This document shows positions 5,333 to 60,610 of a stretch of DNA of 64,000 nt, piece by piece. This DNA is from Isurus oxyrinchus (lineage: Eukaryota), in assembly GCA_026770705.1 (NCBI GenBank), contig JANJGN010000021.1, positions 29,388,001 through 29,452,000 on the forward strand, read 5' to 3'. The translations under genes and the position numbers were made by a program. The notes beneath the pieces are model-generated. The model worked only from the letters and a program-made list of their open reading frames with translations, did no database searches and was not told the origin of the DNA. Each line of letters starts with the position of its first letter. Position 1 is the stretch's first letter.

Positions 5333-5800
<468 letters not shown>

Positions 5801-30124: not shown

Positions 30125-31640
30125 GACAGCAAAGTCTAAGGGTCCTGACAACATTCCGGCAATAGTACTGAAGATTTATGCTTCAGAACTAGCCTAGCCA
30201 AGCTGTTCCAGTACAGCTACAACACAAGCATTTACCCGACAATGTGGAAATTTGCCCAGGTATGTCCTGCCCAAAAAATCAGGAAAAATCCAACCTGGCC
30301 AATTAATGCCCCATCAGTCTACTCTCGATCATCAGCAAAGTGATTGGAAGGTGTCGTCAACAGTGCTATCATATAGCAATTGCACAGCAATAACCTGCTC
30401 ACTGACGCCCAGTTTGGCTTCCACCAGGGCCACTCAGTTCCTGACCTCATTGCAGCCTTGGTCCAAGCATGGATGAAAGAGCTGAACTTCAGAGGTGAGG
30501 TGAGAGTGACTGTCCTCGACATCAAGGCAGTATTTGACTGAATATGGCATCAAGGAGCCCTAGCAAAACTAGAGTCAATGGGAATAAGTGGGAAAACTCT
30601 CCACTGGTTGGAGTCATACCTAGCACAAAGGAAGATGGTTGTGGTTGTTGGAGGTCAATCACCTCAGCCCCAGGATATTGTTGCATGAGTTCCTCAGGAT
30701 AATGTCCTAGGCCCAATCATCTTCAGTTGCTTCATCAATAATCTTCTCTCCATCGTAAGGTCAGAAATGGGGATGTTTACTGATGATGACTCCTCAGATA
30801 CTGAAACGGTCCATGTCCATATACAGCAAGACCTGGACAACATTCGAGCTTGGGCCGACAAGTGGCAAGTATCATTCACATCACACAAGTGCCAGGCAAT
30901 AACCATCTCCAAGAAGAGAGAATCCAAACATCTCCCTTTGACATTCAATGGCATTACCATTGCTAAATTCCCACTATCAGCATCTTGTGGATTATGATTT
31001 GCCAGAAACTGAATTGGATGAGCCATGTAAATACTGTGGATACAAAAGCAGGTCAGAGGCTGGGAATTCTATGGCGAATACCTCCTCCTGACTCCCCAAA
31101 GCCTGTCCACCATCTATAAGGCACAAATCTGGAGTGTACTGGGTGAGTGCACCTCCAAAAATACTCAAGAAGCTCGACACCATCCAGGACAAAGCAGCCT
31201 GCTTGATTGGCACCCCATTCACCACCTTCAACATTCACTCCCTCTAACACCGATGCACAGTGGCAGCAGTGCGTACCATCTACAAGATGCACTGCAGCAA
31301 CTCACCGAGATTCCTTCGACAGCACCTTCCAAACTCATGATTTCTACCACCTGGAAGGACAAGGGCAGCAGATACATGGGAACAGCATGACCTGCAAGTT
31401 CCCCTCCAAGCCACACACCATCCTGACTTGGAACTATATCACCGTTCCTTCACTGTCGCTGAGTCAAAATCCTGGAACTTCCTTCCTAACAGCAGTGTGA
31501 GTGTACCTACACCACACAGCACAGGGTGGCAGTGGTTCAAGAAGGCAGCTGACCACTACCTTCTCAAGGGCAAATAGGGATGGGCAACAAACATTGGCCT
31601 AGCCAGTGATGCCCAAATCTTGTGAAAGAATTTAAAAAAG
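30125..31640 (+). mobile_element. 5'-truncated non-LTR retrotransposon (CR1/L2 group), decayed reverse transcriptase plus 3' end
   Basis: Frameshifted RT motifs GPDNIP, PISLLS, QFGF, LDIKA.FD..WH, VPQ..VLGP, MFTDD, QQDLDNIRAWADKWQVSF. Ends with an A-rich tail at about 31634-31640. Confidence 0.9.
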
Positions 31641-35974: not shown

Positions 35975-36345
35975 ACCTCAGTTCTAAAACTCCTATTCTC
36001 ATTTTCAAATCCCTCCATGCTTTCTCCATCTCTGTAATTTCCTCCAGCTCAACAGCCCTCAGATCCCTCTGCTCCTCCAGATCTGGCCTCTTGAGCATCC
36101 CTGATTTTAATTACTCTGCCATTGGCTGGCCGTGCATTGGCTCTAAGCTCTGGAATTTCCTTCCCTACCCTTTTTGCTTCTTTATCTCTTTTTCCTCCTT
36201 TTAGTCAAACTAAAGCAACTCTTTGAAGAAGCTTTGACCATCTGCTCTAATATCTGCTTATGGGGCTCGATGTTAAATTTTGTTTGATTATGCTTCTGAA
36301 GTGACTCATTACATGTCTTTATGTTGAAGGCACCATATATAAGTC
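35975..36345 (+). mobile_element. L2-type LINE 3' fragment
   Basis: Reverse-complement-like similarity to 56655-56975 (CTAAGCTCTGGAATTTCCTTCCCT; TTTGACCA); pyrimidine-rich L2-like end. Confidence 0.55.
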
Positions 36346-39300: not shown

Positions 39301-39554
39301 GATTCAAAATAAAGAGAAGGGTTCACACTGGGACATAAGATAAACATAAAACAGAGACGCTATTCAGGCAATTGAATGCTGCCGGCTTTGAACCATGTGA
39401 TCATTAATAATAATACATGCATTTATATAGTATCTTATCACGTTGAAAAGTTTCAGTGCTTGACTCAATGAATTACTTTGAAGTGCAGGAACAGTTAGGG
39501 CAAATGATGTAACCATCTTGTATAAGCAATATCCCACAAATAAGCATAAGTTCC

Positions 39555-40552
39555 ACCAGCCTCCACATTCAAAGGATCATCCTCCACCATTTCTTCCACC
39601 TCCATCGTGGTGCCACTGCCAAACACATCTTCCCCTCCCCTCCCTTGTCACCGTTACCTCTCCAACACCTGGGTTCACTCCTCAGTCACCCCTAACTCCT
39701 CATCCCCTTCCCACCGCACCTTCCCATGCAATCGCAGAAGGTGTAACACCTGCCCCTTTTACCTCCTCGCTCCTCGCCGTCCAAGAGCCCAAACATTCCT
39801 TCCAGGTGAAGCAGTGATTTCCGTGTACTTCTTTCAATTTAGTATGCTATATTCACTGCTCAGAAGACACAGTCTCCTCCACAGTGGGGACTCTAACTAT
39901 GTAAATTGGGTGACTGCTTTGCGGAACACCTCTGCTCAGTCTGCAACTGGCTTAGCTTCTGGGTGCTTACTACTTTAGTTCACCATCTTGCTCTGTCACT
40001 TCCGTCTCCGGCCTGCTGCAGTGTTCCACTGAAGCTCAGTGCACACTCAAGGAAACAGCACCTCATCTTCCAAATAGGCACCTTACAGCCTTTTGGTCTC
40101 AAAGTTGTGTTCAACAATTTCAGCCCATGAACTCATGTTCCCCATTTTGATTCTGTTTCTTTTTCGCTGTGTCCCAGTCTGAATCCTGTTTCTCGTTATT
40201 TTGCTTTTGGACAGAGTTGTTCATTATTCTGCCATTTACACTCACTCTGGACAAATGCTTTGTTTCTTTACTACAATCATTACCACTTCCTTTGCCTTTT
40301 ATTCCATAGCATCTTTGTCATTTACTCTCTCCCACTCTCTACCCTTTCCCAGACCTTCCCTTTTAATCTCCCCCTTCAATGACATAAATCCCATCACATT
40401 TCTACCTTCCTTCAGTTCTGAAGAAGAATCTTGTTCAACTCGAAACATTAACTCACTCTCTTTCTTCACAGATGCTGCCAGACCTGCTGAATATTTCCAA
40501 CACTTTGTTTTTAGTTCAGATTTCCAGCAACCGCAATATTTTGCTTTGATTT
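39555..40552 (+). mobile_element. Penelope-like element, decayed GIY-YIG endonuclease region plus 3' UTR/pLTR
   Basis: Frameshifted peptides SLHIQRIILHHF..KHIFPSPP, TFPCNRRRCNTCPF, LGDCFAEHL, QHLIFQIGTLQP.GL..VFNNF. Followed by a hammerhead-like motif and the GATGCTGCCAGACCTGCTG tail. Confidence 0.85.
40413..40454 (+). ncRNA. Degenerate minimal hammerhead ribozyme (PLE)
   Basis: CAGTT-CTGAAGA-...-GAAAC-ATT-AACT. Core is present; stem II and the stem III palindrome are damaged. Confidence 0.55.
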
Positions 40553-41142
40553 TACTAGGAATTGACCTACTTAATCTATACATTTAGCTATAAACTTTAT
40601 GAACATTGGATTTATGCAGCTTTGCTGCCTCTAACAAGAAATATGTTTTCTTAAATTGATACAAGATGCTTTAAATCATTATTTGCTTAGTCAATTTTGA
40701 ATTGAAACTATGCCTTAATTGCCAATTTATTAAACAGCACAGGTTAGGATTAGTTGTAAATACTTAATTTCATCTCATGCCCAAACTGATCCCTCTGCAC
40801 ATTATAATTAGCAATTAACACATTCCTTCAGTTGTTCTGTTGCTTAATCTCATAGCCAGTAGGATGGGCAGGAAAGTACATTGACTTTCAAGTATATTGC
40901 TTGAAGGCTGTTTATGAAACTTTAATGCAGCAACTGGGCACATTTACAATATAAAAAATTCAAAGAGATTTTTGTCACTTTTCATCTCTAAGCTGCACAT
41001 AGTTAAGACCTGGCTTTGGTCAGTTCTGTTCCTCGTGTGACTATTTGCCTGCTTTTAAAACATGTTCAAAAATAGGCATCTTTGCACAATGCGCCCAAAA
41101 TAAATTTGAATGACAACTTTTGTTGCATGCTGTAGTATAGCA

Positions 41143-41400
41143 ACAAGAGCAGCAGATGCATGGGAACACCACCACCACCTACAAGTTCCCTCCAACTTTC
41201 ACCCTGACTTGGAACAATAATTCCTTCACTGTCGCTGTATCAAAAGCCTGGATCTCCCTCCCTAACACCATTGTGGATGTACCTACACCACATAGACTGT
41301 AGCAGTTCAACCTCCATCTTCTCAAGGGAAATTAGGGTTGGGCAACAAATATTGACCTATCTAGCAAGGTTTGCAAACCATTAATTAATTTTTAAAAAAG
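41143..41400 (+). mobile_element. 3' fragment of the 30.1-31.6 kb LINE family
   Basis: Aligns by eye with 31360-31640 (GCAGCAGATGCATGGGAACA...CTTCTCAAGGG). Confidence 0.8.
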
Positions 41401-42424: not shown

Positions 42425-42630
42425 TTTTTGTTTATTTGTTCACAGGGTGTGGGCATTGCTGGCTAGGTCAGCATTTATTGCCCATATCCCTAATTGCCCT
42501 TGAGGTGATGTTGGTGTGCCGCCTTCTTGAATCGTTACAATTCACATGGTATAGATACACACACAGTGCTATTAGGAAGGGAGTGCCAAGATTTTGACCC
42601 AGTGACAGTGAAAGAATGGGGATTATAGTT
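42425..42630 (-). mobile_element. 3' fragment of the same LINE family, reverse orientation
   Basis: GGGCATTGCTGGCTAGG...CCCTAATTGCCCTTGAG is the reverse complement of 31560-31615. Confidence 0.8.
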
Positions 42631-43689: not shown

Positions 43690-43863
43690 GGCACAGGCAA
43701 AAACTTGAAGACCAGTCAAAACCAGGCACACTTTTCTCGGATCGTCTAAGTGAATTGGAACGTTACCGCCAGACAGCCATGAGGGTTGGTCCTTCAACGC
43801 CCAGCCCTCGACCTCTTGGAGTGCCCACCCACTTCAGCCCACAAGCTCAAACACAGATGCAGG
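43690..43863 (+). CDS. RUNX3: RUNX3 coding exon 4 ([11 protein letters not shown]...QAQTQMQ)
   Basis: Acceptor ttgcAG|GG, donor CAGG|GTAAGT. 174 nt, phase 1-1. [10 protein letters not shown] and PSTPSPR...HFS.Q.QT..QG match RUNX3 better than RUNX1/2. Confidence 0.95.
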
Positions 43864-44767
43864 GTAAGTGGAACATAAACGTGCCTTTGGGAACAACTCT
43901 GGGAAATCCTTGCAAACAGTCAAAAATTAAAATATTTCCGTACAATGATGCATCATAAAATCAATTAATATAGGGAGTAAGCATGGTTACAAGTTACAAT
44001 AAACACTTCTTTTTGTTTTGGTCGTGAGAAGCTTTTGACATTCCTGTGCGGTGAGTTCAAGCTTTCTTCCTGCATCCAAGTCCCCTAATTTCAGCGTAGC
44101 TTAATCCATGCCCAGATTCACATATGCTTCTTGTGACAGCATTTTATCTAACTTTGTAGAATCCGTGTAAAAAATACTTCTGATAAATGCAGAACTGGAC
44201 TATGTGCAGTATTTATAAAATGCTCCAGTTAAGTATAGCAGGTGAAAGCAGCGTAGAGCCCCCTACAGTACATTGTTCCTATCAGACTTCAGACCATGTA
44301 GTTACTGAACTGAACAACAGCACATTGCATCACTGAAAATGCACAGTAAACCCATTGTTCTCTGTGATATACATCAGCGCTATATCACATATTATTGATG
44401 ACTCCCTGGTAGAAAAACAGTATTATTATAGCACAGGTCTGTTGTCAGTTCTGGCAAAAATATATAATTTATGGTTCTCGGATTATTAAAGATCACAAAA
44501 TAACTTCATTCCAATTCACCATCTACTATAACATGTGTTCATATTACATAGAGAGGTTTACTGCATCACAGCAGCAATTTGCATCATATTTGTTCAAAGT
44601 TATTTACCTAACACTTGAATAATACTTTGAATAATACCTTGGTGTCAGAAAGCTTTTGGAATTCAAAGCAACACAAAGCTGATCACATTATTGATAGTTT
44701 CTGTTCTATCCACTTGTGGTTATATTGCAGACACCTGCATTTTAGCACATTAAAACAAAACAATTTA

Positions 44768-44976
44768 GGAATCACAGAATCTCACAGTGCAGAAGAGGAC
44801 CATCAAGTCTGCACCGACACGTGAGAAACACCTGACCTACCTACCTAATCCCATTTTACGAGCACTTGGCCCATAGCCTTGAATGTTACGACATGCCAAG
44901 TGCTCATCCAGGTAGTTTTTAAAGGATGTGAGGCAACCCGCCTCCACCACCCTCCCAGGCAGTGCATTCCAGACCA
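44768..44976 (-). mobile_element. CR1-type LINE 3' fragment
   Basis: Minus strand reads VWNALPGRVVEA...F.KYLDEHL, then a CR1-like 3' UTR. Confidence 0.7.
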
Positions 44977-46814
44977 AATGAAAATCTTTTTCTTCCATTC
45001 TGTTACCCACAAGAACTTTTCATGACAACGAATCAACAAAATAAATTTATCCCCCTTTCTTTGAGAAGGAATTTCTATTTAGAGTTTAGTGCAGTATTTT
45101 GGTGTATGGTCTCATGAAAAATGACAAATAGTATTAAAAAGTGATGTCAAGAATGGGATATAATTCAGAATTGGCAGGGAGATGTATGGCCTGGACAGTG
45201 TAGATGAACAGGTGTCTAATCCAACCAGAGAATTTCGACAAAAACAGCTCCCCTATTTCATTTGGTCCTCTAGAAATCAAGTTAGAAGCATCTTGTTTAT
45301 TTCCTCTTAATCCAAGCCAAGAATCTGCAATCTCCCAATTAATGAACTACTTTTGACCTAAAACTAGTTTAGAACCCAATTCTACAGCTGCAGTGCACGC
45401 AGATTAAAGTTAATTTGGACCTGAAAGAATAACTTCTTAGTTTTGGCATTTTACTAGACAGATTTCCTGCCATTGCCACTTTTGCTGCATATTTATGATG
45501 TCATATGCAAATACTGTGATGGTTTAATGACACAAATGGCATCTGTGTGTATGCATCATATCCAAACTAAACTGAAAAGCAGTCCTCATGACCACTTGTG
45601 GTTAGTTATATAATTCCTGCCCTTAGCCTGTTTTCATGCACAGGTCTCAATATTCCTTATGCAATAATCTTTCACAATTATAAAATACAAAATTTCCTGA
45701 AAGAATAAGCTAAGCAGCATTAATGGACTTATGGGACAGCGTAACTGTTGATCTTGAGATATATTTGTAATGGAATGCTTGCTTGACTACTCATGCCCTT
45801 GTCCATGTTGCTGCTCTCATACTGCCGGTAATGTACTCCCACGCATGCATTTTTACTTAACAACAAACACACCCACTTTAGTGCGTTTCCAGTCAAAACA
45901 ATTAGACTGGAAGGTGGAGATCAGACCCATTCCTTTTTACATAAAAAAACAAACACACAGCATTCCCTCTGTGGAGCAAAGCAAGCCCAGAATGGAAAAA
46001 GGAAAAATCCTTTTCATATAAACCCAACCAAACTGAGGAGGCAGAGTGTGCTGGCAGATCCATCCCATTCACCCCTTCTTTTGTAATGTTATGAAAATAA
46101 ACGTCACAAAGTATTATAATGTGACTTAGAATTTCATGTAAATAGGAACAAAGAAAATCAAACAAATGTCCTCTGATGTGGTTCTTAATATGGAACACCT
46201 GCTTTCATACTAACTGGATGGTTGGTTAAGATCCTTTGGCTGCCTAATATTCAAATCTCTCTGCCACATGTGCCAAGTGTGTTTTCTTGATCAGTTTGAG
46301 AGAATAGATTCTATAAGGGAGATAAAAAAAATTGAACAGGCTTCTTGCCAAGTGATCATAGACCAGAATTGATAGTGGTCATGGAGAAGTGAGCTGTATA
46401 TAGATCATCCTACCATCCACAGTCCCGGTGAAAGGTAACTCTGATAGGCAATAAAGGAAACAAAGCCTGGAGGAGGGTGGGGTGGGGGTGGGAGCGGAGC
46501 GGTGTTGGGGACGGGGAGGTCAGCTGTTGTATATTTTATATCTCGGAGCAATGCCAAGTTGACACCAGTTCTATGTGTGCAACGGGTTTTAGTCAGTGCT
46601 TTAAAATGTCTACTCCATGCCTACAGCTCGGGCTTCCAGCTTTTCCTACAGTTTGTTTCATTTTCTCTGAGTCCACACCTAGGCTTAACCAATTAAGTAC
46701 ATTGAGCTTGGATCAGTCACCAGACTCTCATAATAAAAAGCACAATTGAAAACTACAGAAAGAACAGATATTAAAGCTGCACAATAAAATCTTCCAAGGA
46801 GAGAGGAAAATGTA

Positions 46815-47300
46815 GAATGTTTTCTTTATCTGTAGCCGATTGGTCTCCAAAGAACGACAAAGTTTTCTGGAACTATATAGTGCTCTGTTCAGATCACATC
46901 TTAAGTACTGCATACTGTTCTGGTCACTGAGATAGGAAGATAGCTAGGTACTGGAAAGGAGCCTTGAGACTGATCTCCAGTGTCACAGGCCAGAGTCATG
47001 AGGAAAGAAAGTAGAAACCCGTGCATTTTATACTTTAAAAGTGACCTTAAAGGTATACAAGCTGATACATGATATGGAAAAAAGATATTTCAAAGTAAAC
47101 CATGACATTAGGACAAGTGGACACAAATTCAAAACAGTCAGCAAGTTTCTTTTACTTCAAGGAGTGGTTACAGGGAACGGAGTTCTGTGTTAGGTAGTGA
47201 AATGGAAAACCCTGGAATCTTTTAAGGAGCAGTTGGATGCCATGATAGGGAGTCTTTCTGGACAAATGAGCTTCAACGGGCCCAATAGGCTTCTTCACCT
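46815..47300 (+). mobile_element. Old CR1-type LINE fragment
   Basis: Degenerate LY.AL.RSHL.YC..FWS and TLESFKEQLD motifs. Confidence 0.55.
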
Positions 47301-48124
47301 TTTTGGAGCTTGCAGCTTTATGCTTTGGTTTGAAAAAGATAATAGGCTAGAAATAGTTGTTGTCAATCTTAGCAGTTAAGATATTTATGTGGTGTATCTC
47401 TGTCCATTATTTTAACTGAGGTGTGAACCCTTGCTTGTTTAAAGAGGCCAACAGCTGCTTTAAGATGATGGGCAGAAGAATAGCAAGCAAGTGTATTGTC
47501 CACTCTTATGCCAAAAGTAATTTATGGCCTCTATGGATTACATTTTAATTGGCAGAGTGTGTTTTAGGTGTTGCCCCCAAAGCAAAAATACAAACAGTGT
47601 GCAGTTATGGAAACTCAAAAGAACAGCCAGGACTGTGATCTTATTAAAAAACAGACTAAAATCTACATAGATTGCAACTCATAATAATGATTACATTACA
47701 CTCAACTCCAGCGAGACAGGAATTAAAAAACATCAGACCATTTGAGCCATTTTCCACAAATCCAATTTCAGGGTTCTTTCTCTGATTTTTTTTTGATTAG
47801 ATCCAGTTTCTGTTATTAATTATGCTTTCTTGTCACCTTGGAGTAATACTGAACCTCCAAAGGACATTGCACCTATTTTCAGGATCCTTTACACTTTTGA
47901 GGTCTGAATATGGTTACAGCATGGCTAACTATCATGGGCTGAGCATATTGTCAAATTGTCAGAGCTATTTTCAGCAAGTAAACAATGCTGAAAGCCATTA
48001 GTACCAATAGTCTGCATCTGACTACCCTACTTGACTTTATACAGCACCATTCTGCCCTGATACAGGTAACACCTCTCACAAATGATGTATGAAAATAGAT
48101 AGACAGATGGACAGACAGATCAAT

Positions 48125-48570
48125 TACCCGTTTATGAAGTGCCTTTCTTGACTTCAGCAGATCCCACAGCAATTCATTTCCAGTGAAGTACTTTTGATGT
48201 GTGATCACAGTTGTAGCGTAGGAAAGGTTAATTTACACACAGCAAGCTCACACAAACAAAGAAATAATGACTAGATGATCTATTTTAGTGTTGCTTATCA
48301 AGAGAAAATGTTGGCCAGAACACTGGGGAGAACTCAACTGCTCTTAGTTGAAAAAATGCTATGGAATCTTCTGTGTCCACTTGAGAGGGAGGGAGGGGGC
48401 TTTAGTTTAACACCTCATTGGAAGACAGCACCTCATCCAAAAGACAGGGCAGCACTCACTCAGTGCTGCAGTAGATGGTCAGCTGTGATAAGTCAAGACA
48501 CTAGAGTGGGACTTGAACCCACAGCCCTATGACTCGGCGATGCGTGCCACTGCTATAGTAATCAGGCTGA
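48125..48570 (-). mobile_element. tRNA-derived SINE (Deu-type, tentative)
   Basis: Minus-strand B box (GTGGGACTTGAACCC on +); body similar to 26485-26910. Confidence 0.65.
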
Positions 48571-50039
48571 TATTTGAAGTGGTACCAAAAGCATCCGCTT
48601 CTACAAAAAAATAGTCACAGCAAAGGACGTAAATAAGTGCAGCACCCAAAATTCAATGGATCGTGCCTTCATACCAGGAACTGGGAAGTTTTATTTTAGA
48701 CTATTCCAGATTTACAATATCCCAGAATATCGATTCTCTAACTCAGAACTTTGCTTGCTATCTGATTCCACAGTTTCATTTGATTCTGTATGGAAAGGCT
48801 GCCTGGAACAAAATCAAGTAAAATAGAACCCATCGGAAATTAAAAATGAAAATCAGCCTGGGCCGAAGCTGGGGCTAACTTCTAACCACACTTGTTACTT
48901 TGTACGGTTACTTCAAATAATAACTGCTGGTGGTGTTGATAATAGAATGTAGTACCCTAAAATTATTTTGCCAAACAAATGAACATAACCTGCCATCAAG
49001 GGAACATGTGGAGAGTTCTTTATTTGCAATTGTATAGAAATCTGCTCCAGCACTGCCCAGATACCCAACTAAAGGAGGACAAGGTCAAGTGGCTAAGTAG
49101 TGGTAGATAGTTTGGAAAAAAGGAGAAGTTTGAGGGTTAAGTGGCAATGGAGGAGGGAGCTGTTTGACAATGAGTGGCAGAAGAAGGACAATAGGATGTG
49201 AGGTTAAGTGTGAGTGAGTGGCTGTGCAGCATCATATTGAGACATTGTGTTGAGGTTGTGACATTTTACTGCCCACACTGCTGTTGCATAACAACAAATT
49301 AGAAATTTCAAAAGTGGAACTCCAGCAATGTGCTAACTCACTATCCTCAATTGTGGTTGCAAACAGATGTGAAGGCCCATTTGGAAAAGTGAGTGTCCGG
49401 CCTGCGATGATGATAAGGTTTTGTTGTGTACTGAATAAGACTAGGACATGTTCAACTGCAGACAGGCATTACTGAACTAATTTGATTTACACCTTCCCAG
49501 CAGAGTGGGCAATATAACAAAATGCTCAGATATTACAATAAACTACATTCCCACCTCACTTAAAAAAAAAACTTTTATATTAAAATGTAAAATGGTATGT
49601 GTACATAATTTCCTAAAATACAATATGACCAAACCAACATCAACAATACCTGAAAATTTAACAGGTTGGGATGCTTACTTGTTTTTACTGTAAGCACAAC
49701 CAAAACATATATGACTGATACTGCAGAATAATTTACATGATAACAAATGTTTTTCCTCAACGTCAGTATGCATTTAACAAAAATATCATTTGATAAGAAA
49801 TAATGAAAAGAGCAACTTTTTTCTTTTTCCTTCCTATATACTTTCACTTAACTTATCTGGAATCTCTCTCTTTCTGTGTGGGTATCTCCTTCCATTTCTA
49901 TTGGCTTGACTTTGCTCTCTTAATGTTTCTGACTGTGCCAAATCTTTGACTTTGACTACCAATACCACATAATGGTTGGGACTGTAACATCAATTGATTC
50001 GTCTTAGTCAAATATTCTGTAATATTGACAAACTTTTGG

Positions 50040-51343
50040 TTTCCTCAGTCTTGCATGCTGTCTGGATATAATCAACTTTCCCAACGGCCTAGCACTTTGA
50101 CTGGAAATGAGGATATTTAAATGGTTGGTGGCTACCATGGCAATGGTAACATGTAAATTTCTGAGTCTAGAACTGTGAACTTGGCTGCTGTGAGCTGAAT
50201 CTTGTTGAAATCTGGTGTACCGCCCATGCTGGCTCAGGCAGAGAACTTACTTGCACACTGCAACTCTCTCTTTCTGCCATTTCCATTGCTGTGGCCTCAT
50301 CACAGGTCTCTTTTGAAGTCAGCTTATTGCTTTTGCCCAAAATCTTTGCCTGGATTTTATTGTTCTTTAGACCTCCTGCAAATGTGTCTCTAAGGTTGAT
50401 TAAGTTCACGCCATATCCACAGTGGCGAGAGTGTTTCTTCAATTCAAGAATGTAATCTGCAGCAGGCTCACTTGGCAACTCTCAATGCAAAAACAGAATT
50501 ACCTGGAAAAACTCAGCAGGTCCGGCAGCATCAGCGGAGAAGAAAAGAGTTGACGTTTCGAGTCCTCATGACCCTTCGACAGAACTGTCGAAGGGTCATG
50601 AGGACTCGAAACGTCAACTCTTTTCTTCTCCGCTGATGCTGCCGGACCTGCTGAGTTTTTCCAGGTAATTCTGTTTTTGTTTTGGATTTCCAGCATCTGC
50701 AGTTTTTTTGTTTTTAACTCTCAATGCAATCTCATTCTCAGTCATGCCATGAGTCCAGAATCTCATTAATTCTAGCATATTCTATGGTACTGGGGTCTTG
50801 CAGGCAACACTGGATTGACACCACCCCAAAAGCATCTGGCCGCATTTTGATGAAGAAAACATTTACTTTATTCTCATTTCCTATTTTATTCATTTTCGGC
50901 CAAATGTGTAACCTTCATTCCTAATTACACCTGTCCTCTTTGTTCGGGTTGAATTCCCCCGTTGTCCCCAAATATGCCTTCAATGCCATTTTTTTTCAGT
51001 TACATACAGCGGTGGCTCACTGTGTACGTGATCACAATGTTCAATGTACACAATCTTTCAAATTGTTCAAACTTCCTCAGAATCAACTATCGGAGTTCCA
51101 AAAATGTGACACAATCTTCTTCAGGTCTTAATTTCTCAAATGAAACGTAATGTAAAAGAAAATTCCATCCCAGCTTTATCGTCATCTTTTTGTTGTGTAT
51201 TGAACTAAGCAAGACTAGCTCAGCTGCAGGTAGCTATTATCGAATTAACTTTATTAACACCTGCACAGTAGAGGGCACAGCAGAGAGGGCAACAAAAAAA
51301 GAAATTCTCAGTTCGAGCAACAGGTTTATATGCTGTTGTTACA
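50040..51343 (-). mobile_element. Decayed Gypsy-like LTR retrotransposon 5' portion (putative LTR end plus gag pseudogene)
   Basis: Minus-strand peptides GIFGDNGEFNPNKED, KVNVF, PSTIEYARINEIL, EPAADYILELKKHSRHCGY..LRDTFAGGLKNNKIQAKIL, and a zinc-knuckle remnant CYHCHGSH...C*AVGKVDYIQTAC. Upstream TG...CA segment 51343-51191 has TATAAA and AATAAA. Confidence 0.75.
50491..50715. mobile_element. Palindromic PLE-derived insertion (perfect 95-bp arms, 2-nt loop, 36-nt tail) with 14-bp TSD
   Basis: 50488-50582 is the exact reverse complement of 50585-50679. TSD AACTCTCAATGCAA at 50477-50490 and 50716-50729. Confidence 0.93.
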
Positions 51344-51402
51344 CTGGAACTTAAGTGCAGAATGGAATCCTATGCTAGAAAATGTCCGGTGTTAGGAGGA
51401 AC

Positions 51403-51998
51403 AAAAACAGAAAATGCTGGAAAAACTCAGCCGGTCTGACAGCATCTGTGGGAGGAGAAACAGAGTTAATGTTTCAGTCTGTATGGCCCTTCTTCAGAGC
51501 TAAAGAGAATTAGAAATGAAATGAAATTTATACTGTTTAAGGGGAGTGGAGCAGGTGAAGCTGGATAGAAGGCCAGTGATAGGTAGGGGTAAAGGAGAGA
51601 TTGACAAAGATGTTGTGAACAAAAAGGACAAAGGGAATGTTAATGGTAGTGGTAAGGGCTCAAAAAAGATGCTGATAGTGGCAAAGGTAAGAAAGCAGAA
51701 TGTGATAATAGCAGGACAAGGGTAAGCACTCTGAAAAGAACAACATGAACATGCAATAGATGGCCCTTGTGGGGGTGGGGTGGGGGGGGGGAAGGTCAAT
51801 GATGGCAAAAAAGGATGGAGAATGGGATAAAAAGGGGAATAAAAAAGGGGTTAGAACAATGAATAAAAATGAAAATAAAAAATAATTTAAAAAATTAAAA
51901 TAAGCGGATAAAAAATAAAAATGAATTTTGAAAAAAGGGATTAAAAAAGGGGGTGAAGATAGAGGGGAGAGTTCATGGTCTGAAGTTGTTGAACTCAA
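51403..51998 (-). mobile_element. 5'-truncated PLE 3' end with 13-bp TSD
   Basis: Minus strand starts with the ORF end IEFNNFRP* then the 3' UTR. TSD TGTTAGGAGGAAC at 51390-51402 and 51999-52011. Confidence 0.88.
51463..51503 (-). ncRNA. Minimal hammerhead ribozyme motif (partly decayed)
   Basis: Minus strand: TAGCT-CTGAAGA-AGGGCC-ATACA-GACT-GAAAC-ATT-AACTC. Confidence 0.55.
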
Positions 51999-53005
51999 TG
52001 TTAGGAGGAACCTTGGTCAGGCAGGACTGGCAAACTGAGCGATTCTGGTGTGGATGTGTGTGACTTTCAGAATTTTCCATTCTAAGAGAGCTTGCTGCAA
52101 ATGTATAGAGCAATAACTGAGCTTGGTTAAATTGGTACCTGGTAGAGCACAGTCACAGGAACGTGCAAAATACATCTCCAGGGAGGCCACCCACACTAAA
52201 AAATATGGTTGGAATAAACACTAAAGCTACTGTGCCTGCTGTGCACATGTAAACTTCTGTGCACACAGACTCAAAGCAGGCACAGTGTAGTGACTGGAAG
52301 GGAAACTTTAACTCTTATGTCTAGCATACACCAGCAGAGGCTAGAGTTAAAACCAGAATGTGTCCATTTCCACCCCGTGGCACCCGCCCCCAGGCAGACT
52401 CTGCATATATTTATGCAAATCAGAGTCCATATTGTGCACAGGAACCCAGTGACTTTTTAAATGCTGAGTGAGTAGGCCTCCTACAATGGCTACCTCGTTT
52501 AGTGAAACTGAGACTGAATGAGGCCACATTGAAACTTTCCCTTGTGGGGCTAAAGAGAGCAGGAATATTCTCCTCTAGGCTTGATGAGGAAAGTCTGGGC
52601 CTCACTGGTCCCTTCTCACTTGAGAGATGCCTGTGAAACCGCCTGTGCTAAAATAGCAAAGGACTGTCATTCTATGGCATTCATCCACTAATATTGCAAC
52701 AACACTTTTTAGACTAGTGTTTTAATGGTTAAGAGATCAGATCAAGGAAGAATTGTAAAGTGGTTGGGCACTTGGAGCAGATGAAGATACAGTGCAATAG
52801 GATCACTTTTGTATGGCCCCAATAAAGAGTTGGCACAGACATGATGGACCAAACCTTGTAAACTTCTTTGGTCTCATGATTTTGTAGTAGTTAACAGAGC
52901 AATCTTCCCTTTGCAGGCCTTTTTGCAAATGGCTCATTTTTAAAGAATCACAGTCAAATATATCTTTGAATCAGTGAGGTTTAACACAAGAAATTCCCAG
53001 ACATT

Positions 53006-53057
53006 GGGCTGCATATTACAGGGGGGTGGATGGCTCACCCCCACCCCCCACTCCCTC

Positions 53058-53147
<90 letters not shown>

Positions 53148-53693
53148 ACCAAATCCCCAAAAAGCCGACTCACTTCACACCAACCACCCCGCAGCCATAA
53201 GGCAGTCTGAGTGAGTTAAGTAGCCACCGGTGGGACTTGCGTTGCTCACCGGGGAGGAATTCCCACCCTCAGGAGCTGCCAGCCAATCAGATTTTGGTGA
53301 GCAGGCAGGTAGGAAGAAAGGAGAGGGTATTGCCCCTTGATGAGCTAAGGGCACTCCCCGAAGACAGTATCCTCTTCCCGCCCTTTTGAATGTTTTTTGT
53401 AAAACTGACCTGCCCACTTCTGCCTGACTGCCCACACCAACCATGTTATGGCGTGGGCAGTGTATTATTAGGGTCAATTGACTTGTTAACCAGCTCAACT
53501 GACCCATGATTATTTATTTAAATTTGGCAGGTGGGCTGCCAAGTTTAACACCTGACTATCTAATATGTTATGGGGGTGAGCTCGGGAGTGGGCAGGCAGG
53601 TGGTGGGATTGGCACCTGCCCTATTTTACATGCCTCATCACCAAAATCATGCCCAGCAAGGAGGGGGTGGGGGGGGGGATGTAAAATCCAGCG
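53006..53693. mobile_element. Non-autonomous TIR DNA element containing a (CA)n tract
   Basis: GGGCTGCATATTACA ... TGTAAAATCCAGCG imperfect terminal inverted repeats. Confidence 0.55.
53060..53144 (+). repeat. (CA)~42 microsatellite
   Basis: Uninterrupted CA run. Confidence 0.98.
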
Positions 53694-53950
53694 TGTTGTA
53701 TTACTCGAGAACTGTCTTCTCACAAATTGTTAATCACGCTTATGTACATGTTGTCAGGAATCATGTTCCTTTTTTATGACATACCCACCCGATGATTGAT
53801 GAATGTGTCTGTCACTCCATGAATCAGGCAGGCAGCAAGGTTTAATGTTTGTTCATCCCAATAAAATGAAAGAATAGTGGCATTTGCTTAATAACCCAGA
53901 GAAAGAGAGATATTCTTTCACAGTTAGTGCATGTTTAAAATCTAACAGCT

Positions 53951-54163
53951 TCACGAAAATGAAAGCAAAATACTGCGGATGCCGGAAATCTGAAATAAAA
54001 ATAGAAAATGCTGGTAAAACTCAGCAGGTCTGGCAGCATCTGTGGAGACAGAAACAGTTAGTGTTTTGAGTCCGTACGACTCTCATACGGATTTGAAGCA
54101 TTAACTCTGTTTCCCTCTCCACAGATGTTGCCAGACCTGCTGAGTTTTTCCAGCATTTTCTAT
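53951..54163. mobile_element. Older palindromic PLE-derived insertion with 10-bp TSD
   Basis: Imperfect arms (AATAGAAAATGCTGG...GAGTCCGTA / TACGGATTT...CCAGCATTTTCTATT). TSD TCTAACAGCT at 53941-53950 and 54164-54173. Confidence 0.88.
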
Positions 54164-55675
54164 TCTAACAGCTGCATAGTTCGACCAAAAGCAGAGACAT
54201 TTAAAAATCCTTAGAGCTTTTTAAAAGCAGATCAATGAAATGTTACTTGCAATCCCTACACACAACCTCCCCTCCGCCCCCCGCATACACTCCTCTCCTG
54301 TCCAAATATTTACTGCACACTTCAAGTTACACTCACTTAAAATTAGAATGGAAATGAAGCTCTTTCTCCTTCTCAGGATAATTTTTCTTTTGTCTCATGC
54401 AAAACAAAGTGGGTTAAGACACTACAGTCATCTCTGGAACCTTAGTTTGAATTGAACCAAAGCAGAGGATATATTCACCATCTCTCACTAACTGGTGGCC
54501 GTACAAGCACTGTCTTCTCACCTCCAGAACCTCAGTTTGAATGTATCCTCAAAAGTAGGGCTATGGTAAACTGGAGAGCATCCTAAATACTGTTTGTTCG
54601 CCTCTGAGACCTTGGAAATTAGGGATGGAAAGTCTTTTTCTCTCCTAAATAAAATGAGCTAGTAAGTACTTGCAGTGCTAAAGTGATAAACTGGGGGACC
54701 AAAGTTTAAGTCTTATTTTTGACTGGCATTTGGCCTCAGGCTTGCCGCAAGAGAATGTACCAATTCTGACTGGTCAGCCAGGCGAGATTTGGGTGGAGAA
54801 TGTGCTCCATTCACATCCTGCTCAAGGACATGCGCTGATGTATTGCCTACAGAGCAGCATTAACAGAGCGTATGGAAATTCTATAACCTGCTCTTTTTCT
54901 TTCTTTTGAAAAAGATACTGCATGTGCCTGTGTTTCTCAGTGCGTACACGTGTGCGCGTGCGCAAGTGAAAGAGCCTGTCCAAAAAGTCATTTCCGTTCT
55001 CATTGCACAAATGTTCCCTCAAATTAAACATTTACTAGGACTAAAGTAACATAAGAAGATTCAAACTAAAAATGAATACGGCTTGAATGTTTAACTGGGT
55101 GGGAGCCAAAACAGTGGAATTAGTTGCCTGACTAAACTCAAAAAGTTATTTCCACAAAATGGGCCGCTGACCAATGTGGTTAGGTTACAGTTACCATTAT
55201 GTTAATAGTCCAGGTAAGGTATTTATCTCTTAGGTTGTGTGTAATTCATGTGTGTGCCGTGACCTGGTCAGAAACAAAAATCCGCCAGTGCTGGGGTCCT
55301 ACTCATTGCTTTAATTTTAGGTCTCTTTGTGCTCAAACAAGCAATTGTTATCACCTATCATCTCCCTCTAATCTGAGACTACACTGAAAAGCTGTATTTT
55401 TTTTATTGGCTTTTAAGAAAGAGCTTTGTGGTGAAGGGCAGTTTCAACTCAATTTATTTATTAGCAGAATTACCTACTTCCATCAAACAAGATCAGTGCA
55501 TTTTGAGAAATTGGCAGTTCTTTATCATCAAAAGATATCACCAAACGTAAATTTGAAACGAAATGATTTCAGAAACTAATGAAAAGCAAAATACCGCAGA
55601 TGCTGGAAATCTGAAACAAAAACAAAAAGAGCTGGAAAAACTCAGCAGGTCTGACAGCATCTGCGGCGAGGAACA

Positions 55676-55716
55676 CAGTTAACGTTTCGAGTCTGTATGG
55701 CTCTTCATCAGAACTA
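55676..55716 (-). ncRNA. Minimal type I hammerhead ribozyme with intact core
   Basis: Minus strand: TAGTT-CTGATGA-A-GAGCC-ATACA-GACTC-GAAAC-GTT-AACTG. Stem I TAGTT/AACTG, stem II GAG.C/G.CTC, palindromic ACGT stem III. Confidence 0.75.
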
Positions 55717-56194
55717 AACAAATATAGAAATGTGGTGAAATATAAGATGGTTGAGGGGGTGGGACAGCCTTCTCGACTTAACATTGAGTTCAACAACTTC
55801 AGATCATGAACTCTCTTCTCCATCCCCACCCCCTTTTCAATCCCCCTTTTTCCAATAATTTATATTTTTTAAATATATTTTTCTTTTCCCACCTATTTTT
55901 AAATTTATTTCGATCTATCATTTTATCTCCACCTTTTAGCCCATTTCAATCCCTTCCCCCCACCCCACCCCCACTAGGGCCATCTGCCACTTGTTTGTCC
56001 TGCTTTCTACCCTTAATGTCACCATTAGCACATTCCTCAGCTAATATCACCACTCTCAACATCCCTTTGTCCTTTTGTCTACGACATCTTTGGCAATCTC
56101 TTCTTTGCCTCCACCTATCACTGGCCCTCTATCCAGCTCTACCTGTCCCACCCCCCTCATCCAGCTTATATTTCGCCTCATTTCTATATTTCTT

Positions 56195-56235
56195 TAGTTC
56201 TGATGAAGAGTCATATGGACTCAAAACATTAACTG
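56195..56235 (+). ncRNA. Hammerhead motif with inactivating core change
   Basis: TAGTT-CTGATGA-A-GAGTC-ATATG-GACTC-AAAAC-ATT-AACTG. CGAAACG has become CAAAACA, consistent with CpG decay. Confidence 0.6.
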
Positions 56236-56654
56236 TATTCCTCTCCGCAGATACTGTCAGACCTGCTGAGTTTTTCCAGCTATTTTTTTGTTTCAGAAAC
56301 TAGTGAGTCAGTTTGGCAAAGCTCACTGAACTGGTGTGTATTGGTAATGTGATTTATTTACAAAATTCGCCTTGCGTTTCTGTTGATGATAGTAGTTTCC
56401 AGAGTTGCATAGCGCTGAATGAATGGCTGCCTTTGGAATGACTGTTTGTGTGATTGCATCACTGCAGAATATTTCAGAGAACCAGTGAATAAAATACTGG
56501 AAATGTACAAGATTGTCAGGATCTCCATAAGATATGAAACATGGAAACATAATGAATGGGAAACAATGACATGAAAAGTTGTCAGGTCTGTGGAACTTTG
56601 AAGTGATTGATCCAGACTAACATGTGGCAAAACAATCTGGTTTGGCAACCATAT

Positions 56655-56975
56655 ATTACTTATTTCTATAGCACCCTTAACATAATGAAATGTCCCAAGA
56701 TGCTTCACAGGAGCATTATTAAACAAAGTATGACATTGACCCACATGAGGAGATATTGGTTCAGGTGACCAAAAGTTTGGTCAAAGAGATGGGTTTTAAG
56801 AAGATTCTTAAGGGCGGGAAATGAGGTAGAGAAGCAGTGATGGGTAGGGAAGGAATTCCAGAGCTTGGGGCCGAGGAAACTGAAGGCACAGCCAATGACT
56901 ATTAATGGTGGGGTGACTAAAATTAGGGATGAGCAAGAGGCCAGTTATCTTGGAGGGTTCTAGGCTGGGGGAGGT
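56655..56975 (-). mobile_element. L2-type LINE 3' fragment
   Basis: TTTCTATAGCACC...GTCCCAAGATGCTTCACAGGAG...GGAATTCCAGAGCTTGGGGCC, typical of a reversed L2 3' end. Confidence 0.65.
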
Positions 56976-59719
56976 TTTTGTTATTCTATTTAGATTAGGA
57001 ATCTAGTAATATCCTCCCTTTCTCTGGATAACTTGCCATAGCGACTATGGTAACAATTAGAGAGCAGGTCAATGACCTGTTTAAGTAACAAATCCTGCCC
57101 ACAGCAGAGAATATTTCATGCATCCCCACAGGGTGGAGAAATTGGTGAGTGAGTCATCCCAGGCTGTTCTTGCACAACTACTGTATATACACCAGGGAAT
57201 GGCTCACAGAACAGAGTGAACTAAACAAAAACGTAAAATTGGAACGAGGGAGAGGTAAATTCATTTAAAAACAAATAAACCCTGTTGGTTTTGTAAAACA
57301 CATTGCCTGCACGTGGGTGCTAAATCAAAGATGAAAGACTTCACTGTAATTCATTGTTTCTTGCAGTTTAGCATTTGATTACTGAGAGCAGTAATTTTCT
57401 TTAAATTACTGTCTCACACCTAACAGTCCACCCTAAAATTCAGACTTGATATCATCATTTAATTATACTGTTGTAAACCATCTCAAGTATGCTGATTAAC
57501 AGTCTGCCCCTGTAGCATATTGTGTGCATGCCAGAAGAGTCAGACTGAGGTGCTGGCATACTTGACAGGAATTATAGCTTTATCCGAGAATGGCACCTCA
57601 GGAGCTCAGTTTCTTGCAGTGCACAAACAGCCGGCCTGTTTTTTTTAAACTGATCAGGAGGAGTTGCTACACCTTCTTCTAAAAAAATTGTTGCCCTGTA
57701 GAAAGTACTGCTGTGGAAATATTGCTAAAATCTGATTTAAGTACATCAGCTGAGCCATAGTTTATGTGTTTTACTTGCACTGTAAAAGATTCACTGTTGT
57801 CAGATGAAAAGTCTTTACAAAAATGTTTTGGCTTTGAATTATATTAGATGATGTTATTTCCAATAGCTCCATGACCAGACTTTGCCAGCTAACCTTAGTA
57901 ATCATATTGACCAGTCGTGCTCTCTCACCATCCTCTCTGCATGTGCCCTGGCCCTGGTAATGCTAAGCAAATGTGCAGAGATATTGGTTGCAACACTGTG
58001 GCTCCATTTCACTCCTTGTAAATATGGCTACCTGCCTGGACCTTGGGAACACAAAATTTACTTGAGTGATTTTACTACTTGCCCAGGTGGGGGTGATTCC
58101 TCACCAGACTTATTTTATGTGGAACCTTTGGCTTGATTCTGGTATGCTGCGAGTGAAACTACTCTGTGGCTGCTCTATATAATGTAAATAGAAATGCAGC
58201 TAATAGCTTGTGGCAGTACTTTCAAGTATTATCAGTTCCTGAAGCCATAGACTTCAGTAAATCACATTGCATTTTTCTACTGTTCACCTGCTGTATTAAC
58301 CACATTTCCGCAATACAATGCTAGTATACGTGCTGCACAAAAGAAACCATCTCAGGGTCATTTTAGCCTAGTGAGGTAAACAGGCAGCTCACAGGACCAG
58401 GTAGAACACAGGTTTTACAGCCCGCTCATTGATTTCAGTGAAGAGTAAAATTGCATGGGCACCTGAAGCCATCAGTTTCCCAATGAAGTTAGATTTAAAT
58501 TACCTCATTGACCTCCAATACAATAACAATGAACACAGAACTCTCTGTCAAAGTTCAGTAATGGGTACATTTGCCTTTTTGCATCCATACATCTACAATA
58601 CTTTATTTTTATTGCTATGTCAATCTGGAGACAAAAATCACCTGAGAAGTAGGTGGGGTTGAAGTGTTGTAATCTCAGTTTTGGTTTTCCATGGAATCCA
58701 GATGATGAAAATTGAATACTTCAGATTTCTGGAGTTGATGCAATTGCGGAGGCTGGGCTGGCAGCAGCCCAGATTATTCTTCAGGACTCCAGAGGAGCAG
58801 GAGTGGTCCTCCTGGTCCAACAAAAATCATTTTAAACTGACTGGTATTAGTCCTCCAGTTGACTGTACCACATTGCTGTCTCTCAAAGTGGCAAAGTCCA
58901 ATGGGCATCATACAATCCTAATTGGCATATTAAAAACACCTATCACCTGAAAAAGGTGAGTACTCCATCCAGGCTCGTCTCAGGATTGGAGTGGGAATGG
59001 GACAGTAAATTTCTCTGTAATTTTCAGGCTGTATACTTAAAATCTGGAAACCAGTAAGAAATCCAGTCTATGGCAGAAAATGGACAAGTATAGAGGTTGG
59101 GTCCTTTAGAAAATAAAAAAAGAAGCATATTGAGATATAAAATTGTATGATATAAGAAATAGCCACTAGTTTAAAAACAGTCACATTAATAAGCTGACAT
59201 ATTTTGGTGAAGTTGTTGTGGCCTATTTGGAATCATTCCAGAGCGACAGCATACACAGATTCTGCAGAATGAGAGTCCTGTTGTAGTTGTGTAAGCCATT
59301 CCACATGGAAAATCATTGGAGTCAAGGGGTTTCCAGCAGTACATAGTCTGTTGCTTGGCTTTGTGACTCAGCGCTTTGGCTGGGTACTTTCCTGTTTGGG
59401 TTTAGCAGCCCTTCATTGACCAGTAGCATTGCTCAACATTGAAGCAGTTTCTGATTGTTTATGCAGAGTTCTGTACTCACAAGGCTTTTATTCAGCAGCA
59501 GGTTATAATATAATATGAGCGTGTTTATACTTTCTTTTGAATGATGCAGCTGGATTTTACAATCACTTCCAAATGGTGCTGCACTGAACACAAACAATTC
59601 CAGATTTAAAAAATAAGGAGCCCTTGAGTATATACACAGTTCAGTGAATTAATCTTTTACTCCTTCATTTCTTCTGTTTTGACTTCATCTTTTTAAATTT
59701 AAATGTTTTATGCTCATAA

Positions 59720-59975
59720 ATAAGTCAAAATATCTCAAAGGCATTTTATGAGTTTTTTTCAAATGCAGTCACTATTGTATTGTAGGGAAATGCAACAGTC
59801 TAATTGCTCCCAGCATGGTCCCACAAACAACAATGGTGTAAATGACCAGTGACATTGATTGAGGGATTAAAAATTGGCCAAGATGCTGGGAGAACTTCCC
59901 TGCTCTTCTTTGAATGGTACCATGGGATCTTTTTCACCCTTCTGAGGGGGCCTCAAGGGTATCGGTTTAATTGTA
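59720..59975 (-). mobile_element. SINE fragment (same family as 48125-48570)
   Basis: Shared body: TTGGCCAAGATGCTGGGAGAACTTCCCTGCTCTTCTTTGAAT..CCATGGGATCTTTT. Confidence 0.6.
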
Positions 59976-60070
59976 AATCAGTGTAAAGTATAGCTTCCCC
60001 AACAATGTTATAAGAATGCTATACTTGAAATGCCAATATCATATAATGACCGTTCAAACATTTACTTTGA

Positions 60071-60610
<540 letters not shown>

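Follow-up and report, generated by a model that had tools for sequence, protein, structure and literature searches.

Fold-back elements in an intron of a RUNX gene

The window analyzed here is a 64,000-nt (64-kb) stretch of Isurus oxyrinchus DNA (contig JANJGN010000021.1). Its + strand contains five coding exons of a RUNX gene, with the ATG of the first counted exon at 5384; we take the gene to be RUNX3 rather than RUNX1 or RUNX2. Three inverted elements (E1, E2 and E3) and one single-arm copy (S51) lie between the fourth and the last coding exon, hence in intron 4 counted from the ATG exon, where the first-pass annotation had placed them. A fifth copy (S40), located in intron 3, falls beyond the range of that annotation and was overlooked there. 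The density amounts to five insertions per 64 kb, three of them inverted, and the clustering is weak and was assessed post hoc (p about 0.01-0.015).

39540..40553 (about), + strand: S40, single arm, 5'-truncated, tailed; intron 3, 5' limit approximate
43690..60087, + strand: RUNX host gene, fourth coding exon (first nucleotide 43690) up to where the last one begins (60087)
50477..50490, + strand: E1 left TSD, 14 bp, exact repeat at 50716-50729
50491..50587, - strand: E1 left arm, tail-less; whole predicted minimal hammerhead on the minus strand
50585..50715, + strand: E1 right arm, tailed; begins at the first nucleotide of the predicted hammerhead core
50716..50729, + strand: E1 right TSD
51403..51998, - strand: S51, single arm, 5'-truncated, tail-less; starts in the last ORF codons
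53941..53953, + strand: E2 left TSD, 10 bp exact (13 bp if one mismatch is allowed); second copy 54164-54176
53954..54083, - strand: E2 left arm, tailed; 5' end within predicted hammerhead stem II, without the catalytic core box
54083..54163, + strand: E2 right arm, tail-less; begins at loop II
55567..55582, + strand: E3 left TSD, 12 bp exact (16 bp if one mismatch is allowed); second copy 56291-56306
55583..55767, - strand: E3 left arm, tailed; short, reaching only 57 nt 5' of the predicted core
55764..56290, + strand: E3 right arm, tail-less, long; ORF end, 3' UTR and predicted hammerhead

E1, E2 and E3 are real fold-backs, each made of two head-to-head arms within a single TSD, and we rejected two separate insertions per fold-back because only one TSD surrounds each. 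The three insertions were found at the places first reported, except that the extended TSDs (13 bp and 16 bp, one mismatch each) put the starts of E2 and E3 probably 3-4 nt further in, at 53954 and 55583. The TSD range of 10-14 bp given earlier stands for E1 (14 bp, exact), and E2 and E3 more likely have 13 and 16 bp with one mismatch. Among 1500 random boundary pairs, an exact match of 10 bp was reached by 2 and one of 12 bp by none; 13 bp with one mismatch was reached by 1/1500.

In E1 the two arms are 98% complementary over 100 nt, in E2 93% over 58 nt and in E3 89% over 142 nt. The two E1 arms are identical (0/80 differences) and overlap by 2-3 nt at the axis (50583-50584); at its 5' end the left arm is 5 nt longer than the right arm, and the loop therefore belongs to the left arm. 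Arms differ at 10/80 positions in E2, with an axis overlap of 1-2 nt, and at 11/80 in E3, with an overlap of 3-4 nt at 55764-55767. The description of these elements as ORF-less has to be qualified for E3, whose right arm retains the final 14 ORF codons and the stop (55765-55809). E3 and S51 both begin in the same ORF end. S51 is flanked by an exact 13-bp TSD (51390-51402 and 51999-52011); at the ends of S40 the best match was 7 bp and none was credible.

Arm ends fall into two classes

Counting the 1-7 nt shared with the TSD, the 3' ends of the 8 arms from the 5 insertions are bimodal: 12-19 nt past a fixed anchor in 4/8 and 50-58 nt in 4/8, with none in between. The tail thus delimited is ~35-45 nt long. 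As the first-pass annotation had noticed, one arm has the full 3' terminus and the other is short in 3/3 fold-backs, a pattern with p = 0.125 under free choice. The single-arm copy at 51403 likewise stops short, in the same end class as the tail-less fold-back arms. An optional tail of 30-40 bp on one end only is a feature of EN+ PLEs, and these elements display it. Tail-less ends have 3, 1, 3-7 and 3 nt in common with the presumptive priming end of the TSD; the lizard PLE reportedly starts at a site without homology to the cut DNA. When arms were folded singly, no consistent sign of structure emerged (z -2.1 to +1.1, 6 arms) that would account for the two start sites.

These ends bear on whether the elements could be DNA-transposon MITEs with long terminal inverted repeats, a reading that we consider hardly credible. 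Its appeal lies in superficial form only (inverted arms, no ORF, a TSD). The TSDs vary between 13 and 16 bp, the ends are unequal by a tail, and the terminus is joined to a putative GIY-YIG-type ORF end; neither a fixed short TSD nor equal terminal inverted repeats were found in the elements. Single-arm 5'-truncated copies with their own TSD also exist, and S51 and S40 contradict the MITE reading.

A predicted hammerhead lies near two of the three inversion axes

A minimal type I hammerhead, as known from PLEs, is predicted near the 3' end. A hand-written descriptor gave no perfect match on either strand of the window; with at most one core and one stem mismatch it gave 5 matches on both strands, 4 of them arms of this family. 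In an alignment of 5 arms, 88.6% of the stem cells are paired compared with 16-40% in slid controls, without two-sided covariation in the stems. Descriptor matches and stem pairing together agree with the minimal hammerhead motif proposed earlier. Rfam reported no hammerhead at gathering score, with 0 hits in the whole window. None of its 12 weak matches within 50300-56500 was a hammerhead either; the best were miRNA hairpins, an identity that we rejected since these matches are below gathering score and reflect hairpin shape only. The predicted core starts at 50582 in the E1 left arm (cut after 50552, core position 6 being U instead of A), at 55711 in the E3 left arm (cut after 55681) and, with one core mismatch, at 56200 in the E3 right arm. 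In the E1 right arm, the 5' strand of stem I is missing, and the descriptor scan found no intact hammerhead on the plus-strand arms of intron 4.

In the two short elements the axis indeed lies at or inside the predicted hammerhead: at the first core nucleotide in E1 (50583-50584) and in stem II in E2 (about 54083). The E3 axis (55764-55767) is 57 nt and ~435 nt upstream of the cores of its two arms. Axes set by hammerhead cleavage were considered and rejected. All arms (8/8) run past the predicted cut and none (0/8) begins there, which indicates that self-cleavage did not set the axes. In the 2/3 elements whose axes are near the hammerhead, 20-36 nt separate the axis from the predicted cut downstream of it; the template was therefore not cut there by the ribozyme.

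Evidence for a Penelope (PLE) origin

As first proposed, the terminus appears to be linked to PLEs. The link is at motif level, through a chain of Neptune-like motifs in the ORF remnant of S40, and database searches did not confirm it. S40 contains a broken ORF end spread over three frames, followed by a 3' UTR and a predicted hammerhead (core start 40418). Its putative motifs are a CX4CxxC finger (39727), a pre-GIY cysteine region (39824), an FxxH helix (39903) and a terminal motif (40080), with a stop at ~40130. The window has one such ordered chain, and 60 shuffled windows had none, a weak control since the patterns were written after sight of the sequence. The finger precedes the pre-GIY cysteine by ~32 codons and would correspond to the CX2-5CxxC finger of Neptune; Nematis has such a finger too, but with a shorter spacer than S40 and Neptune. 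By eye, and with a post hoc pattern, motif spacing in S40 resembles the Neptune rows in Fig. S2 of PMC8557442.

Protein searches with the S40 ORF were negative: Pfam matched 0/5 stop-free pieces, word-index searches with the pieces found nothing, a PDB search gave two chance matches only (E 0.29-0.39), and Atlas scores (0.77 and 0.75) were below usable level. The sole full-HMMER match, P0001, is a repetitive protein without a Pfam family that aligned mostly with the out-of-frame part of the remnant, and it was discarded. As each piece holds 18-30 in-frame residues, these negatives carry little weight. The 64-kb window contains no RT domain, and no copy reaches the RT; neither a full-length copy nor a partial tandem pLTR is present in the window. 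Bacterial and archaeal scans returned 0 and 3 matches, the three lying in long bacterial contigs, matching over only 26-36 nt around the pattern and dismissed as chance.

As in PLEs, the elements combine 5' truncation with a second copy, inverted and likewise 5'-truncated, both enclosed by one TSD of variable length. Overall, E1, E2, E3, S51 and S40 are very likely ordinary, heavily 5'-truncated Neptune-type PLE insertions, each produced in one event from a different source copy.

Separate insertions or a mobile hairpin family

E1, E2 and E3 differ from each other at 16-20/80 positions. Arms are closest within an element; between insertions they differ at 12-23 of about 80 positions. This similarity is clear for E1 only, whose arms share 6 private states; E2 and E3 arms are nearly as close to S51 (12-13 of ~80), and tree support for their groupings is 41-62.

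We considered whether the fold-backs form a non-autonomous retro-family comparable to MITEs, each copy being transcribed and moved on as a unit by PLE proteins acting in trans. Fold-backs make up three of the five insertions in the window, trans-mobilisation requires no more in cis than pLTRs (PMC3846280), and non-autonomous PLE derivatives such as MRC1 and retrozymes exist. On the other hand, axis, length and subfamily are common to 0/3 element pairs, both ends coincide with the start sites of single-arm copies, and plus-strand arms in intron 4 are without an intact hammerhead. The signature of an amplified hairpin family (common axis, length and diagnostic changes) was thus found in 0/3 pairs within the window. 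The idea of a distinct hairpin family is not supported: the elements show 16-20/80 differences, unlike axes and lengths, and the standard PLE form of an inverted copy plus tail. Independent mobility is improbable, and equally so the idea that an ORF-less family of RNA hairpins, mobilised by PLEs and amplifying as a unit in cartilaginous fishes, has its master copies among these fold-backs. If they were, double-stranded, small or circular RNAs would be expected out of host introns. The candidate master copy is E1, with identical arms and a perfect hairpin of ~92 bp. Between the two options offered in the first-pass annotation, a recurrent by-product is the better one and an independently mobile hairpin class the poorer.

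Both-strand priming as the favored mechanism

The best explanation overall, to which we assign a probability of about 0.65, is that Neptune-type PLE insertions arose here by both-strand priming. That both target strands primed on two template copies is, in turn, the likeliest mechanism, with the odds moderately in its favor. It had been suggested earlier, and it agrees with arm polarity and with in vitro extension of both strands in a lizard PLE. According to PMC11167929, both target strands are nicked and extended in vitro in that system, two RT start sites bound the tail, hammerhead cleavage is unnecessary, and a dimer is predicted.

By analogy with the lizard PLE, a GIY-YIG endonuclease would nick both target strands 13-16 bp apart, the spacing seen in the TSDs. 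From each 3' end, reverse transcription would then proceed on a separate copy of the 3' terminus, supplied by two RNAs or by two repeats in a partial-tandem RNA, starting at one of two U-rich sites ~35-45 nt apart, consistent with the bimodal ends. The template would be uncut by the hammerhead, in keeping with the 8/8 arms that pass the predicted cut. Both cDNAs would stop early and their 3' ends may anneal over 1-4 nt, the overlap observed at the axes; filling of the gaps would yield a head-to-head pair in one TSD. When cDNA is made from one strand only, a single arm such as S51 or S40 would result. Where a short arm ends close to the hammerhead, this may reflect run-off from a transcript starting there or a stall at stem II. 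The products would be dead-end by-products. The case has as its base 3 fold-backs and 5 insertions in one window.

Alternatively, with the PLE identity unchanged, an antisense RNA or cDNA could fold back and prime itself, with one arm trimmed at the pre-tail site on integration. Such self-primed hairpins have been proposed for junction palindromes (PMC3846280), and resolution by the endonuclease has been proposed as the source of the tail (PMC8557442). The identical E1 arms with their 6 private states, their 2-nt loop at a natural short palindrome and the E2 axis in stem II all speak for this model. In E1 and E3, however, the tail-less arm carries extra 5' sequence, so the tail of the other arm was not copied from it. 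Simple snap-back of a target-primed cDNA is rejected for these two elements: the loop is on the tail-less arm and the tail cannot be supplied. In E2 the loop is on the tailed arm, and simple snap-back fits equally well. Self-priming would thus need extra trimming in E1 and E3, and the trimmed end equals the end of S51, a single-arm copy without a hairpin. Extension of both strands has been demonstrated in vitro (PMC11167929). We regard self-priming as unlikely.

Finally, an inverted pLTR joined to pLTR-ORF-pLTR might have lost its ORF later by direct-repeat recombination, which would leave an inverted pair within the initial TSD; this three-repeat form is typical of PLEs and solo pLTRs are on record. 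Yet E1 looks young (0/80) and is already minimal, the formation of the axis is left unexplained, and 5' truncation is the rule in PLEs, so secondary reduction is not needed. We judge it very improbable.

Significance

On the PLE reading, the fold-backs are tidy examples of a known PLE structure and not a new class of mobile element. How PLEs make inverted repeats and one-sided tails is undefined according to PMC8557442, and the value of these minimal insertions is mechanistic: priming ends, axis and TSD all stay readable. If the density observed here is typical genome-wide, the junctions of one assembly would be enough to decide between two-template priming and self-priming. We see an even chance that, genome-wide, a fixed rule of one tailed and one tail-less arm, together with cDNA stops at the 5' edge of the hammerhead, would provide in vivo proof of two-template priming. 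For annotators, such PLE remnants can mimic MITEs and miRNA precursors. In host pre-mRNA, E1 would fold as a hairpin of ~92 bp, and young copies like it would bring long double-stranded RNA into host introns.

Comparison with known systems

We found no literature on fold-back PLE remnants in cartilaginous fishes, in a search confined largely to openly available papers. The form of the insertions is that described for PLEs, an inverted 5'-truncated copy with a tail at one end only (PMC8557442); in rotifer examples, junction palindromes are most commonly head-to-head and TSDs are 8-10 bp (PMC3846280). With Neptune EN+ PLEs (PMC8557442; PMC3846280) our elements share 5' truncation, the head-to-head inverted copy, a usually one-ended tail of 30-40 bp, junction palindromes or overlaps, a variable TSD, a predicted minimal hammerhead near the 3' end and, as putative motifs in S40 only, a CX2-5CxxC finger ahead of a C-terminal GIY-YIG domain. 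In contrast, both copies here are too short to retain more than a remnant of the ORF, if any, their TSDs are 13-16 bp compared with 8-10 bp in the rotifer examples, and this window has no partial tandem and no RT domain.

PAc, the Poseidon-clade element of Anolis carolinensis, is alike in its two tail-bounding RT starts, in the nicking and extension of both strands and in the use of uncleaved RNA as template (PMC11167929). PAc lacks the extra finger and starts at an AC-rich stem-loop without target homology; our elements appear Neptune-type, with ends in U-rich tracts and 1-7 nt in common with the TSD.

The predicted hammerheads resemble the minimal type I hammerheads of PLEs (PMC4209133) in their short stem I, bulged base before stem II, G-C first pair and palindromic helix III needing a dimer. 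In Schistosoma, pairs of minimal hammerheads occur on opposite strands, 100-700 bp apart (PMC4209133). Unlike the hammerheads of that study, all copies here are decayed (0 perfect), with a stem II of 5 bp and U at core position 6 in E1. Non-LTR retrozymes (PMC7229834; bioRxiv 10.64898/2026.07.22.740005) are also short, ORF-less, hammerhead-bearing and PLE-related, but form head-to-tail tandems that contain two or more complete ribozymes, and they have circular RNAs. Our elements are head-to-head with incomplete plus-strand ribozymes, and no tandem of the terminus occurs among the 8 arms.

DNA-transposon MITEs are similarly small, with inverted arms and no ORF; the elements described here differ in having no fixed short TSD, unequal ends, single-arm 5'-truncated relatives and no identical copies. 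In L1 twin priming, a second cDNA starts from the other target strand, and the inversion is joined by microhomology inside one TSD. On the both-strand reading, the present elements would resemble it in these three respects. Both L1 primers use one RNA, however, and the inverted part does not repeat the 3' end; both arms here carry the same 3' terminus, and two template copies would thus be needed.

Insertions and their genomic setting

Searching the window with a profile built from the arms detected 5 insertions, comprising 8 arms in all, and no further match better than E = 0.5. Three of the insertions are fold-backs (E1, E2 and E3), in which two arms of the same 3' terminus meet head to head, and two are single-arm copies (S51 and S40).

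Insertions carrying the terminus, with their target-site duplications (TSDs)
50491-50715: E1, fold-back; arms 98% complementary over 100 nt; TSD 14 bp exact
53954-54163: E2, fold-back; TSD 10 bp exact (13 bp allowing one mismatch)
55583-56290: E3, fold-back; TSD 12 bp exact (16 bp allowing one mismatch)
51403-51998, minus strand: S51, single arm; TSD 13 bp exact
~39540-40553, plus strand: S40, fifth insertion, tailed, with a broken GIY-YIG-type ORF end

The three fold-backs reported by the first-pass annotation are thus present, with one TSD each, and S51 was also listed there; S40 had been overlooked, and no TSD was found at its boundaries. Among 1500 random boundary pairs, exact duplications of 10 bp and 12 bp occurred in 2 and 0 pairs respectively, and 13 bp with one mismatch in 1.

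The plus strand carries five RUNX coding exons. Counting introns from the ATG at 5384, E1, S51, E2 and E3 sit in the fourth and S40 in the third. A motif scan of the fourth intron gave no convincing extra RUNX exon, which would fit the exon structure of RUNX3. The clustering proposed earlier has a p value of ~0.01-0.015, calculated post hoc.

Several other repeats were observed in the window, and a search of it for tRNA genes returned none.

Other repeats in the window
15381-16152: inverted arms of ~180 bp, 89% identical, flanking a ~410 bp central part; does not match the terminus; unrelated to the family and probably a DNA-transposon-type MITE
28332-28577: ~136 bp unit in two degenerate tandem copies, 79% identical over 112 nt
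31359-31639, 41143-41367, 42426-42630: dispersed family one, copies ~70% identical
36074-36330, 56675-56956: dispersed family two, copies ~70% identical
53060-53145: (CA)n microsatellite of ~85 bp between S51 and E2, containing 0 of 4 TSDs

Two 3' ends and a probable link to Penelope-like elements

Measured from one aligned anchor and including bases common to the TSD, the 3' ends fall at 12-19 nt in four arms and at 50-58 nt in the other four. Each fold-back pairs one short-ended with one long-ended arm, in agreement with the full and shorter termini noted earlier (3/3); S51 lacks the tail and S40 has it. Read in the RNA sense, the two end zones are rich in U. Each tail-less end shares sequence with the TSD end that would serve as its primer, by 3, 1, 3-7 and 3 nt in the four arms, counts made soft by T-runs. 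The tail itself (55583-55640, minus strand, and the other tailed arms) repeats a ~10-nt motif that also stands immediately ahead of the first end zone, and has a splice-acceptor-like pyrimidine tract ending in CAG; that of E3 is able to pair with upstream sequence, in a fold inconsistent across arms.

On its 5' side, S40 runs into a broken ORF split across three frames.

Motifs in the S40 ORF
39727: CX4CxxC finger
39824: cysteine and GIY-like stretch
39903: FxxH helix
40080: terminal motif

By eye, these motifs are ordered and spaced similarly to the Neptune rows in Fig. S2 of PMC8557442. Across the window this chain has a single occurrence, against none in 60 shuffled windows, for motifs picked after seeing the sequence. 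None of five ORF pieces matched Pfam, none of three word-index protein searches gave relatives, searches against PDB and Atlas were negative, and a single HMMER match was rejected as false. Taken together, the S40 motifs, hammerhead, tail and TSD pattern point to Penelope-like elements (PLEs), an assignment to which we give a probability of about 0.85; the PLE origin proposed earlier is supported at the level of motifs. The elements behave as, and by most testable features are, Neptune-type PLE remnants of the known inverted-copy-plus-tail form. The 5' ends of the E3 long arm (55764-55809) and S51 (51960-51998) both lie inside the last codons of the S40-type ORF, each within ~12 nt of one common point, which may mark a pLTR boundary or a favoured stopping place.

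A decayed hammerhead motif

Rfam returned no hammerhead match in the window or in 50300-56500. With a descriptor modelled after PMC4209133, the window held no perfect match, two with one core mismatch (both in family arms), and five with at most one core and one stem mismatch, four of them in family arms. Across five aligned arms, 88.6% of stem cells are paired, against 16-40% with slid partners; two-sided changes were sought in the same arms and none found. Because its boxes are conserved and its stems pair, the minimal hammerhead proposed earlier is supported as a sequence motif, though not by covariation, Rfam or a perfect descriptor match. All copies are decayed, and no plus-strand arm of intron 4 has an intact ribozyme: the right arm of E1 lacks stem I, that of E2 lacks the core box and that of E3 has one core change. 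In both E1 arms (50580-50587, 50579-50588) U replaces A at core position 6, either a subfamily state or a private change, which may inactivate the ribozyme.

The cut is predicted ~30 nt past the start of the core, and all eight arms reach at least 20 nt upstream of that cut. The templates were therefore uncut, and hammerhead cleavage is ruled out as the setter of the axes.

Probable separate origins of the hairpins

Over 80 common positions, the two arms differ at 0 (E1), 10 (E2) and 11 (E3) sites, against 16-20 among the three elements and 12-23 across all insertions. Private states common to both arms number 6, 1 and 1 respectively, with weak tree support for E2 and E3, and the within-element signal in these alignments is strong for E1 only. 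The axes lie at the hammerhead core start in E1 and in stem II in E2, consistent with the first-pass annotation, which had them at or inside the motif, and 57 and ~435 nt upstream of the core in E3; no pair of elements has a common axis (0/3). The hairpins look to have been made separately, each on the spot from its own source copy. These three loci show no sign of the distinct, amplified hairpin family or new class suggested previously, which is improbable, though amplification may have occurred elsewhere. Two scans of prokaryotic genomes found no relatives.

In orientation, the left-arm plus strand and the right-arm minus strand each read as cDNA growing from a TSD end. Under simple snap-back of one target-primed cDNA, the loop-owning arm is the template and the other arm can hold nothing absent from it. 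In E1 the loop belongs to the tail-less arm, which extends 5' by 5 nt beyond its partner, and in E3 the tail-less arm has ~375 nt of unique sequence; simple snap-back fails for these two of three, because the tail is on the other arm. E2 is compatible with snap-back or two priming events. A self-primed hairpin trimmed on integration, after PMC3846280, seems an unlikely origin. The best reading is the two-strand priming put forward earlier, which fits all three elements: two priming events would yield two cDNAs, one per TSD end, whose ends would be joined over 2-3 (E1), 1-2 (E2) and 3-4 nt (E3). According to PMC11167929, a lizard PLE protein nicks and extends both strands, starts at two sites bounding the tail with uncleaved RNA, and is a predicted dimer. 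In E1 and E2 the stops of the two arms are at most 5 nt apart, near the hammerhead, which could reflect transcripts that begin there or stalls at stem II. As RNA, E1 folds at -187 kcal/mol on either strand.

Comparison with described systems

Our literature search found no study of fold-back PLE remnants in cartilaginous fishes. The inverted-copy-plus-tail form is already known for PLEs: PMC8557442 describes an inverted 5'-truncated copy as often present and a tail of 30-40 bp, often at one end only, and both inverted repeats and tail are named as PLE traits in a curation guide (PMC8969392). Inverted pLTRs with 8-10 bp TSDs and junction palindromes, most commonly head to head, are described in PMC3846280, inverted terminal repeats are given as the most frequent Drosophila form in PMC2377424, and minimal hammerhead pairs on opposite strands, 100-700 bp apart, are reported in PMC4209133. 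In contrast to retrozymes, described as head-to-tail units (PMC7229834; bioRxiv 10.64898/2026.07.22.740005), the fold-backs reported here are head to head, and their value lies in offering a clean test set for the question of mechanism.
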